Positions 2,611 to 3,583 of a DNA stretch of 3,583 bases are shown here, in pieces; positions within the stretch are counted from its first letter, which is position 1, and each line of letters starts with the position of its first letter. The stretch lies in the IMG/VR virus record IMGVR_UViG_2648501787_000015, positions 1 to 3,583 of that record; one strand, 5' to 3'. The translations under genes were made by a program, and so were the position numbers. Source of the DNA: a virus (taxonomy: Duplodnaviria > Heunggongvirae > Uroviricota > Caudoviricetes). Under the pieces are notes generated by a model. The model saw only the letters and a list, made by a program, of their open reading frames with translations. It made no database searches and was not told the DNA's origin.

Positions 2611-2648
2611 CTCAAAAAAGGTTAATAATTAAGCGTTTTGTATAGATT

Positions 2649-2684
2649 ATGACGATCGATACCATCATATCGATCGTCGTTTTA
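2649..2684 (+). terminator. Perfect 11-bp inverted repeat (GACGATCGATA / TATCGATCGTC, 6-nt loop) followed by GTTTTA; candidate intrinsic terminator for the tail-fibre operon and/or Dam-methylation-sensitive operator of the com-mom promoter
   Basis: Arms at 2651-2661 and 2668-2678 are exact reverse complements. Each arm carries a GATC (2654-2657 and 2672-2675) embedded in CGATCG. A short T-run follows at 2680-2683. It lies between the stf-N stop and the com start. Confidence 0.35.
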
Positions 2685-2751
2685 CATCATGTGTGGTTAA
2701 ATATCCCCAGCCCTCCGGGTGGTCGTATCTGGTTATTACACAGGGGGAATC

Positions 2752-2937
2752 ATGGACTCTGTTCGCTGTAAAAACTGCAATAAGTTACTGTTTAAAGGAG
2801 GTTTTAAGCATATAGAAATTAAATGCCCTCGCTGTAAACGTTACATTGTCATATCGAATGCCAAAGAGCATCCCACGGAGCTGTATTGTGGGAAAAGAGA
2901 AGAAATCACGCATTCTGACAAAACCCTGCGTTATTGA
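2752..2937 (+). CDS. com: Com, zinc-finger translational activator of mom (Mu Com homologue), 61 aa
   Basis: RBS AGGGGG at 2742-2747 before ATG 2752. The protein [61 protein letters not shown] is nearly collinear with phage Mu Com as I recall it ([62 protein letters not shown]), including the CxxC...CxxC zinc knuckle. Its 3' end overlaps the next gene in another frame, as in Mu. Confidence 0.9.
2872..2892 (+). promoter_or_regulatory. Translation-inhibition hairpin (TIS-like): CCCAC / GTGGG stem sequestering the GTG start of mom, with the GGAG Shine-Dalgarno in the loop
   Basis: CCCAC at 2872-2876 is the reverse complement of GTGGG at 2888-2892; t2871 and a2893 can add a sixth pair. The loop is GGAGCTGTATT (2877-2887). 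GTG at 2888 is in the mom frame. This is analogous to the Mu mom TIS hairpin opened by Com. Confidence 0.45.
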
Positions 2938-3583
2938 GTATGAAGGCCGGATTGTCGGCTATGGTTCAAAGGAGTTGCGCGTTGAAACCATATCCTGCTG
3001 GCTGGCCCGCACAATCATTCAGACAAAGCATTATTCCCGCCGTTTTGTGAATAACTCCTACCTGCATCTGGGCGTATTCAGCGGACGTGATCTGGTTGGC
3101 GTTCTTCAGTGGGGATATGCCCTTAATCCCAACTCAGGGCGTCGTGTCGTGCTTGAAACAGATAACCGGGGTTACATGGAACTGAACCGCATGTGGTTAC
3201 ACGACGACATGCCCCGCAATTCTGAATCACGGGCCATCAGCTACGCGCTGAAAACCATCAGGTTACTGTATCCGTCAGTGGAGTGGGTTCAGTCCTTTGC
3301 AGACGAACGCTGCGGGCGTGCTGGCGTGGTATATCAGGCGTCGAATTTTGATTTTATTGGCAGCCATGAAAGCACATTCTACGAACTGGACGGCGAGTGG
3401 TATCACGAGATAGCGATGAACGCGATTAAGCGCGGAGGTCAACGAGGCGAGTATTTGCGGGCTAATAAGGAACGGGCCGTGGTACACAAATTTAATCAAT
3501 ATCGCTACATCAGATTCCTGAACAAGCGTGCAAGAAAGCGCCTAAACACCAAACTATTCAGGGTTCAGCCATACCCGAAGTGA
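2888..3583 (+). CDS. mom: Mom-like DNA modification protein (adenine N6 acetamido/carbamoylmethyl modification, anti-restriction); start uncertain: GTG 2888 preferred, ATG 2858 or TTG 2846 possible
   Basis: Long ORF ending at TGA 3581-3583, overlapping the 3' end of com in a different frame exactly as mom overlaps com in Mu. GTG 2888 has GGAG 7 nt upstream and lies in a hairpin stem. It would give a 231-aa product, which matches my unverified recollection of Mu Mom length. Direct sequence identity to Mu Mom could not be checked from memory; the call rests mainly on the tight com linkage and architecture. Confidence 0.75.

Follow-up and report, generated by a model that had tools for sequence, protein, structure and literature searches.

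What is a perfect palindrome carrying two Dam sites doing just ahead of the com and mom genes of a Mu-like prophage? The question arises at positions 2641-2690 of the 3583-nt stretch of phage DNA analysed here (the window). The first-pass annotation had proposed that this span, which contains the palindrome (2651-2678) plus flanks, acts as a counterpart of the methylation sensor of Mu mom, as the terminator of the tail-fibre operon, or as both. Judging from comparative sequence analysis, we consider it likely that the palindrome forms the core of a Dam-methylation-sensitive OxyR operator for com-mom and is the positional homologue of Mu mom region I.

The window is 99.8-100% identical to a prophage region in 23 complete E. 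coli genomes. It represents the right end of an E. coli Mu-like prophage, in which tail-fibre genes are followed by com and mom (Table 1). In strain RIVM_C019217, yehR and yehQ flank this prophage, a 33.5-kb transposable Mu-like element. Its genes specify a transposase, Gam, an activator of the Mor family, proteins for lysis, head and contractile tail, tail fibres, and then Com and Mom. The com gene shares 79% DNA identity with Mu com, and Mom is 96.7% identical to Mu Mom and 97.1% identical to D108 Mom (tblastn). Unlike Mu, the prophage contains no gin gene or invertible G segment upstream of com-mom.

The gene upstream of com-mom differs among E. coli relatives, being a DUF4376 gene, a full tail-fibre gene or an SGNH hydrolase gene. 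Relatives with these other upstream genes still align from about window position 2620 onward and keep the palindrome, which thus belongs to the com-mom module rather than to the tail-fibre gene. The homology breakpoints lie at about 2620-2626, roughly 25 bp upstream of the palindrome and outside it. Together, the truncated tail-fibre ORF, the missing gin and these breakpoints suggest cassette exchange or deletion at the junction between tail-fibre genes and com-mom. We also identified one locus (L013, NZ_CP182374.1, locus positions 1500-1700) in which most of com-mom is deleted and about the last 100 nt of mom are left; the palindrome and both GATCs are kept.

Table 1. Features of the com-mom upstream region in the window, with the corresponding positions in the Mu reference (locus L001)
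Feature	Window position	Strand	Mu L001	Remarks
Truncated 'prophage tail fibre N-terminal' ORF, 156 aa	2140-2610	+		Pfam phage_tail_N; incomplete in RefSeq
Proposed extended OxyR operator, 46 bp	2642-2687			Two 15-bp half-sites, 16-bp gap, centres 31 bp apart
OxyR-like half-site A, ATAGATTATGACGAT	2642-2656			8/10; GATC1 overlaps the 3' element (CGAT-C)
ATAG element	2642		2370	
Palindrome, left arm, GACGATCGATA	2651-2661			Read from sequence and checked by script
GATC1 (Dam site)	2654-2657		2382	Corresponds to Mu mom GATC site 1
Palindrome, spacer, CCATCA	2662-2667			Variable centre of the operator gap
Palindrome, right arm, TATCGATCGTC	2668-2678			Read from sequence and checked by script
GATC2 (Dam site)	2672-2675		2400	In every GATC-bearing com-mom lineage
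OxyR-like half-site B, weak, ATCGTCGTTTTACAT	2673-2687			5/10 consensus positions
Third site, CATC	2685-2688		2413	GATC3 in Mu
Putative late-promoter box, TAAATATCCCCAGC	2699-2712	+		Resembles Mu late ATAACCCC / ATAACCAC boxes
Promoter box in the Mu register, ATATCCCC	CCCC at 2705		CCAC at 2433	ATAACCAC in Mu
Candidate -10, TATCTG	2726-2731	+		TATCCT or TGTCTG in relatives
com, zinc-ribbon translational activator of mom, 61 aa	2752-2937	+		Pfam Zn_ribbon_Com, E = 2.5e-7; RefSeq
mom, DNA adenine modification enzyme	2858-3583	+		Overlaps the end of com; tblastn, RefSeq

The palindrome is real and non-random. Direct reading and a script check agree that its arms are exact reverse complements over 11 bp, separated by a 6-bp spacer, and that each arm carries a GATC within CGATCG, as the first-pass annotation had described. 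No other short-spacer inverted repeat in the window's 3583 bases is as long. None of 300 dinucleotide-preserving shuffles reached 11 bp (spacer of 12 bp or less; most gave 7-8 bp and the maximum was 10 bp), in keeping with the earlier judgement that chance was an improbable origin. The arms hold two of the three GATCs in the window (2654, 2672 and 3089; 13.7 expected). The 3' end of the palindrome lies 74 bp from the com start codon, and as DNA the repeat forms a hairpin of -10.8 kcal/mol. A further idea, that sub-palindromes within the arms permit alternative cruciform or hairpin structures, fared less well. CGATCG and ATCGAT are present, but each is a self-complementary word of just 6 bp that leaves no space for a loop, so they have no structural weight of their own; cruciform or sub-palindrome alternatives add nothing testable.

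GATC is scarce across the whole Mu-like prophage, by about threefold. We counted 48 sites against 129-148 expected (loci L181 and L002, NZ_CP087377.1 at about 1963200-1996760), a density of 1.43 per kb compared with 4.28 per kb in flanking host DNA. The twin GATCs of the operator are the closest GATC pair anywhere in the prophage. At prophage scale this clustering is not significant, since by our estimate 48 sites should include about one pair no more than 18 bp apart, and it is not counted as evidence.

Control of Mu mom by Dam and OxyR is mediated by three GATCs upstream of the promoter, to which OxyR binds when they are unmethylated (Bolker & Kahmann 1989; Hattman & Sun 1997, as cited in PMC2909390 and PMC10742451). 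An alignment of the window with this Mu region had been suggested as a check. By blastn, the window aligns with Mu only from position 2762 on, inside com, and the intergenic region stays unaligned; the homology of the operator is therefore shown by an anchored register, with the Mu sequence (L001) read directly. Although BLAST fails, the register is identical. In the window and in Mu alike, ATAG lies 12 bp before GATC1, GATC1 and GATC2 are 18 bp apart, and the promoter box starts 33 bp after GATC2. The window thus reproduces the fixed register of Mu region I upstream of the com-mom promoter. Of the three-GATC cluster of region I (18 + 13 bp), it contains sites 1 and 2 only. The exact position of Mu GATC3, 13 bp after GATC2, is occupied by CATC, which Dam cannot methylate. 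This natural GATC-to-CATC difference is the same change that experimenters have used to separate methylation from OxyR binding, as it removes methylation while keeping the OxyR consensus (PMC2909390, PMC4856963).

Besides their downstream genes, the window and Mu region I have in common an inner core, GACGATCGA...ATCGATCG. They differ in the third site (GATC in Mu, CATC in the window), in the inverted repeat (11/11 in the window and 7/7 in Mu) and in half-site B (5/10 in the window and 7/10 in Mu). Mu GATC1 lies inside the end of gin, whereas the window has no gin upstream, and the flanks of the window cannot be aligned to Mu by BLAST.

The anatomy of the region resembles that of an extended OxyR site. 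The OxyR half-site consensus is ATAGnTnnnAnCTAT (PMC2909390), and half-site centres 31-32 bp apart are canonical for reduced OxyR (PMC4856963, 32 bp; PMC3953959). We scanned all 3583 bases of the window with the pattern ATAGnTnnnAnCTAT-N16/17-ATAGnTnnnAnCTAT, scored out of 20. The site at 2642 with a 16-bp gap ranked first at 13/20, with half-site B contributing 5/10 only, and half-site A was the sole half-site in the window to score 8 or more. Mu (L001 2370-2415) and agn43 are laid out in the same way, and the offset from ATAG to GATC1 recurs in Mu, agn43, L059, L061 and L099. The 16-bp-gap register accounts for GATC spacings of 18, 13 and 31 bp. A compact register with a 7-bp gap, as for oxidised OxyR, was rejected; it scored only 10-12/20 and leaves the 18-bp spacing unexplained.

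The reverse complement of half-site B, ATGTAAAACGACGAT, and Mu half-site A (ATAGAAAACGACGAT) agree at 13 of 15 positions, so the proposed operator of this lineage has the look of a symmetrised version in which both halves are of the A type. Affinity for OxyR may be low, because half-site B matches the consensus at 5/10 positions compared with 7/10 in Mu and 8/10 in agn43. The idea of a Mu-like methylation sensor thus stands on the shared 18-bp and 33-bp register, on agn43 and on the 15 lineages described below, with amendments: the 46-bp site extends beyond the palindrome, which is just its core, the third site is CATC, and half-site B is a weak match.

We gathered com-mom loci by Mom protein alignment from species-representative genomes, phage records, E. 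coli genomes, and viral and metagenome contigs. Loci with a Com zinc finger and at least 200 nt of upstream sequence numbered 148, with 101 unique upstream sequences. GATC pairs spaced at 18/19 and/or 13 bp occur in 67 of the 101, which fall into 15 clusters of <70% identity. The Mu type, with three sites at 18/19 + 13 bp, accounts for 23 unique sequences. The window type, with the 18-bp pair only (sites 1 and 2), accounts for 27 and includes the independent lineages L004 (Scandinavium), L099 and L096/L125. Another 17 have the 13-bp pair only (sites 2 and 3), and in three of the lineages concerned a further GATC precedes GATC2 by 31 bp. The remaining 34 unique sequences, from high-GC or Pseudomonas-type loci, have no such pair; we count the absence of a GATC cluster from these relatives in favour of control by Dam and OxyR. 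Pseudomonas is not known to have Dam.

Where GATCs are present, they lie only at the four element positions of the OxyR tetramer site. GATC2 is kept in all GATC-bearing lineages, and site 1, site 3 and the extra element-1 site are optional. Half-sites 16-17 bp apart place possible GATCs at -31, -18/-19, 0 and +13 from GATC2, which are the observed positions; a GATC fits a half-site as G-ATCG in its first element or CGAT-C in its last. The consensus of 16 lineages including agn43, AT.Gat...a.CGATC-N14/15-GATCGtTt.ta.cGATC, matches OxyR at 8/10 + 8/10, with the two mismatches falling at the bases that generate the GATC. Half-site A positions not forced by GATC anchoring match at 4.3/6 compared with a background of 1.5/6 (0 of 20000 resamplings), figures that overstate independence because the lineages are related. 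Site 3 has been lost independently, as its position reads GATT in L099 and TATT in L004.

In the 23 unique E. coli variants compared, the spacer and outer flanks vary but the arms do not, save for a change at one outer base in L011 and L046. E. coli relatives continue after ATCGATA with ACC, AAC, AGC, ATC or AGA, and the spacer of L011 and L046 is CAATCG. In the sequences compared, a two-GATC, fully symmetric version of the putative operator is common in E. coli Mu-like prophages. Other operator variants occur in L058, L063, L095 and the L064 cluster (17 unique sequences, 40 loci). One type has lost GATC1 and keeps sites 2 and 3; in another, a GATC at OxyR element 1 (ATCG-N7-CAAT) precedes GATC2 by 31 bp. 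In L096/L125, from viral and metagenome contigs, twin GATCs lie 18 bp apart with arms extending outward (GGTTCGATC...GATCGAACC; CTCGATC...GATCGAG). These two loci have no OxyR-like half-site (scores of 3-4/10), and their downstream promoter region is of the Pseudomonas-phage type.

A candidate activator-dependent promoter lies between the operator and com. Its box was assigned by comparison with the Mu late promoters in PMC4461284 Table 1, where lys reads ATAATCCCGC, I reads ATAACCCCAG and P reads ATAACCCCGG and mom is also listed, and the box consensus 'aataa.Ccc' is conserved across com-mom lineages. Pairing the window CCCC with GCCCCAA of Mu instead gives a 9-bp discrepancy and was rejected; Mu lys, I and P show the equivalent box ATAACCAC. 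The candidate -10 was not called in a sigma-70 scan of the window, as would be expected of an activator-dependent promoter. Counted from this putative -10, the operator spans about -96 to -51, and Mu by the same reckoning -99 to -54. The Mu OxyR footprint is reportedly at about -104 to -59, a span of 46 bp.

The activator side differs from Mu. The Mor orthologue of the prophage (L181 12513-13399 region) is 59% identical to Mu Mor and 32% to Mu C. BLASTP and tblastn searches of the prophage recovered this Mor orthologue only and no orthologue of the Mu late activator C, so the controlled com-mom promoter must itself be regarded as putative. A motif search for the ATATCCCCAG box at the prophage's other late promoters found no convincing intergenic copies. 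A 159-aa protein without a Pfam family sits before the lysis genes (L181 12513-13399). Near-identical modules are located before the lysis genes (L181 13430-13470) and the head protease gene (L002 3690-3730). Each consists of a canonical terminator, AAGCCGGTAAATCCGGCTTTTTTT, followed by TGCCT(C/T)CCG, which differs from the com box; these modules are probably the late promoters of the phage.

Several characterized Dam/OxyR systems resemble the window. E. coli agn43 (flu) is laid out as ATAGAATAAAACGATC-N15-GATCGTTTATATCGATC, with half-sites of 8/10 each, and has the scaffold ATAG-N7-CGATC, N15, GATCG-N7-CGATC. Its three GATCs lie inside the OxyR site at spacings of 19 and 13 bp, and the right arm of the window, TATCGATCGT, is shared with its GATC-II context. 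Unlike the window, agn43 is a chromosomal host gene subject to heritable ON/OFF Dam/OxyR phase variation, and it has all three GATCs and no extended perfect palindrome. The position of the agn43 operator relative to its promoter probably also differs from that in the window. In Salmonella/P22 gtr and in opvAB, the OxyR half-sites contain GATCs as part of ATCG/CGAT, a GATC pair at 13 bp covers a single half-site, and half-site spacing is that of reduced OxyR (PMC2909390, PMC4856963). The gtr and opvAB systems have three or four half-sites whose alternative OxyR occupancy produces phase variation, with OxyR also acting as an activator, whereas the window has two putative half-sites only and a role that would be purely repressive.

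The host is identified as E. coli by the near-complete identity noted above, and E. coli encodes both Dam and OxyR. Transferring OxyR binding, methylation sensitivity and repression from the homologous Mu mom and agn43 sites onto the register, anatomy and conservation observed here, we infer the following switch. An OxyR tetramer in the extended, reduced-type mode would contact ATAG (2642-2645), CGAT (2653-2656), ATCG (2673-2676) and ACAT (2684-2687). The two inner elements, CGAT and ATCG, would carry GATC1 and GATC2, and because they lie mirror-wise about the operator centre they would give it dyad symmetry. In the window lineage this symmetry would have been lengthened to a perfect 11-bp repeat (inner CGATC/GATCG plus flanks). 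With both GATCs unmethylated, OxyR would be bound and the downstream activator-dependent promoter off. With the GATCs methylated by Dam, OxyR would be unbound and a late activator could turn on com, whose product would permit translation of mom. The retention of just two methylatable sites counts as a point against control by Dam and OxyR.

The palindrome could instead act chiefly, or additionally, as a Rho-independent terminator that ends the late tail-fibre transcript and insulates com-mom from read-through. Such a stop would be biologically sensible, since transcripts running on from the tail operon would otherwise escape control by Dam and OxyR. The gin gene, which separates the tail genes from mom in Mu, is missing here. 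The predicted RNA hairpin is stable (13 pairs including A-U and G-U extensions, -17.6 kcal/mol, z = -4.1 relative to shuffles), is followed by UUU(U)ACAU, and is the sole hairpin between the stop codon of the upstream ORF (2608-2610), about 40 nt away, and com. Its T-tail is short, however (UUUACAUC, 3-4 U only), and a terminator scan of the window did not report it. The tail decays to GGTTTGCA in E. coli relatives that keep the palindrome and reads GTAATACAG in Mu, where the dyad overlaps the gin stop codon, and the dyads retained in other lineages (-4.5 to -16.6 kcal/mol) are not followed by a T-tail. The hairpin is thus kept while the tails vary. At other operon boundaries the same prophage has canonical GC-rich terminators with a T7 tail (AAGCCGGTAAATCCGGCTTTTTTT). 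We regard the termination proposed in the first-pass annotation as improbable as the main or an added function, and at best a secondary, lineage-specific addition. A combined model seems comparably doubtful: given its symmetric two-GATC form, non-methylatable site 3 and weak half-site B, the operator would behave unlike that of Mu; in a lysogen, it would be held either OxyR-bound and unmethylated or fully methylated, so that only a heritable fraction of induced cells makes Mom-modified, restriction-resistant phage (bet-hedging), and the palindrome would be bifunctional in also terminating RNA.

There is a smaller chance that the twin GATCs serve a different methylation-dependent dimeric protein; candidates would be SeqA, on hemimethylated DNA, and a regulator that is phage-encoded or another of the LysR type. 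Contacts by OxyR should not demand a perfect symmetry of 11 bp, half-site B is weak, and SeqA is an ancillary factor at the OxyR/Dam-controlled opvAB (PMC4856963). L096/L125 retain the 18-bp GATC pair and dyad flanks without the OxyR consensus, so in some phages the pair could serve another protein, and in these two loci it may be a Dam-sensing site for one. Against this, ATAG lies outside the palindrome, 11 bp from CGAT in the OxyR register, and is conserved in the window lineage, Mu and agn43; the homologous Mu region is a proven OxyR site according to the literature cited in PMC2909390 and PMC10742451; and no candidate for the alternative protein emerges from the data. The least probable reading, which we disfavour, is that the palindrome is a remnant without function, arose by chance, or marks a recombination or cruciform site that cassette exchange left behind. 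It would fit the movement of the com-mom cassette between phage backbones, the breakpoints near 2620-2626 and the survival of the palindrome in L013. Yet those breakpoints fall upstream of the palindrome rather than inside it, the shuffles never matched its length, its arms are near-invariant in E. coli while spacer and flanks vary, and its register is conserved across 15 lineages. It is also not known to resemble gix-type sites.

An OxyR operator sensitive to Dam methylation thus remains the preferred reading, and positions 2642-2687 are best annotated as a regulatory site rather than as a terminator or coding feature. Dam/OxyR control of Mu mom was already described in 1989, so the element adds little conceptually; in sequence it is most likely a relative of the textbook Mu mom switch and not a new kind of element. 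The survey indicates that the com-mom cassette carries its methylation-sensing operator along across at least 15 diverged phage lineages, in which GATCs fill different subsets of the four OxyR contact elements. These lineages form a natural allelic series that could reveal the number and identity of the methylatable sites required by an OxyR/Dam switch, and whether mom phase-varies, a question that is open even for Mu (PMC2909390).

Other features of the palindrome region were also noted. A pair of promoter-like hexamers on the minus strand, TCGATA-16-CATAAT (9/12 match, window 2646-2673), points leftward inside the palindrome; four such matches were found and 4.9 are expected by chance. It recalls the leftward momP2 site of Mu. 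A small ORF (2649-2771) with its ATG in the palindrome was rejected, since it stops after 15 codons in relatives, and an Rfam scan of the window reported no RNA family at the palindrome.

Among the loci without GATC clusters, a set of high-GC gut-metagenome loci (L136, L141-L146, L150-L153, L164 and L176-L180) share a conserved upstream stretch of about 150 nt with many GC hairpins (GGCGGGGGAG...CTCCCCCACCGGCCCGG...CCGGACCACGGCCCCAC), which may represent another kind of regulatory module or a structured RNA. In the prophage itself, Mom is about 97% identical to the Mu and D108 proteins, yet the overlapping com region has only about 79% DNA identity, Mor is at 59%, and the rest of the prophage is much more diverged. 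Some newer RefSeq records name Mom a 'tRNA(Gly)-dependent adenine aminoacyltransferase'.
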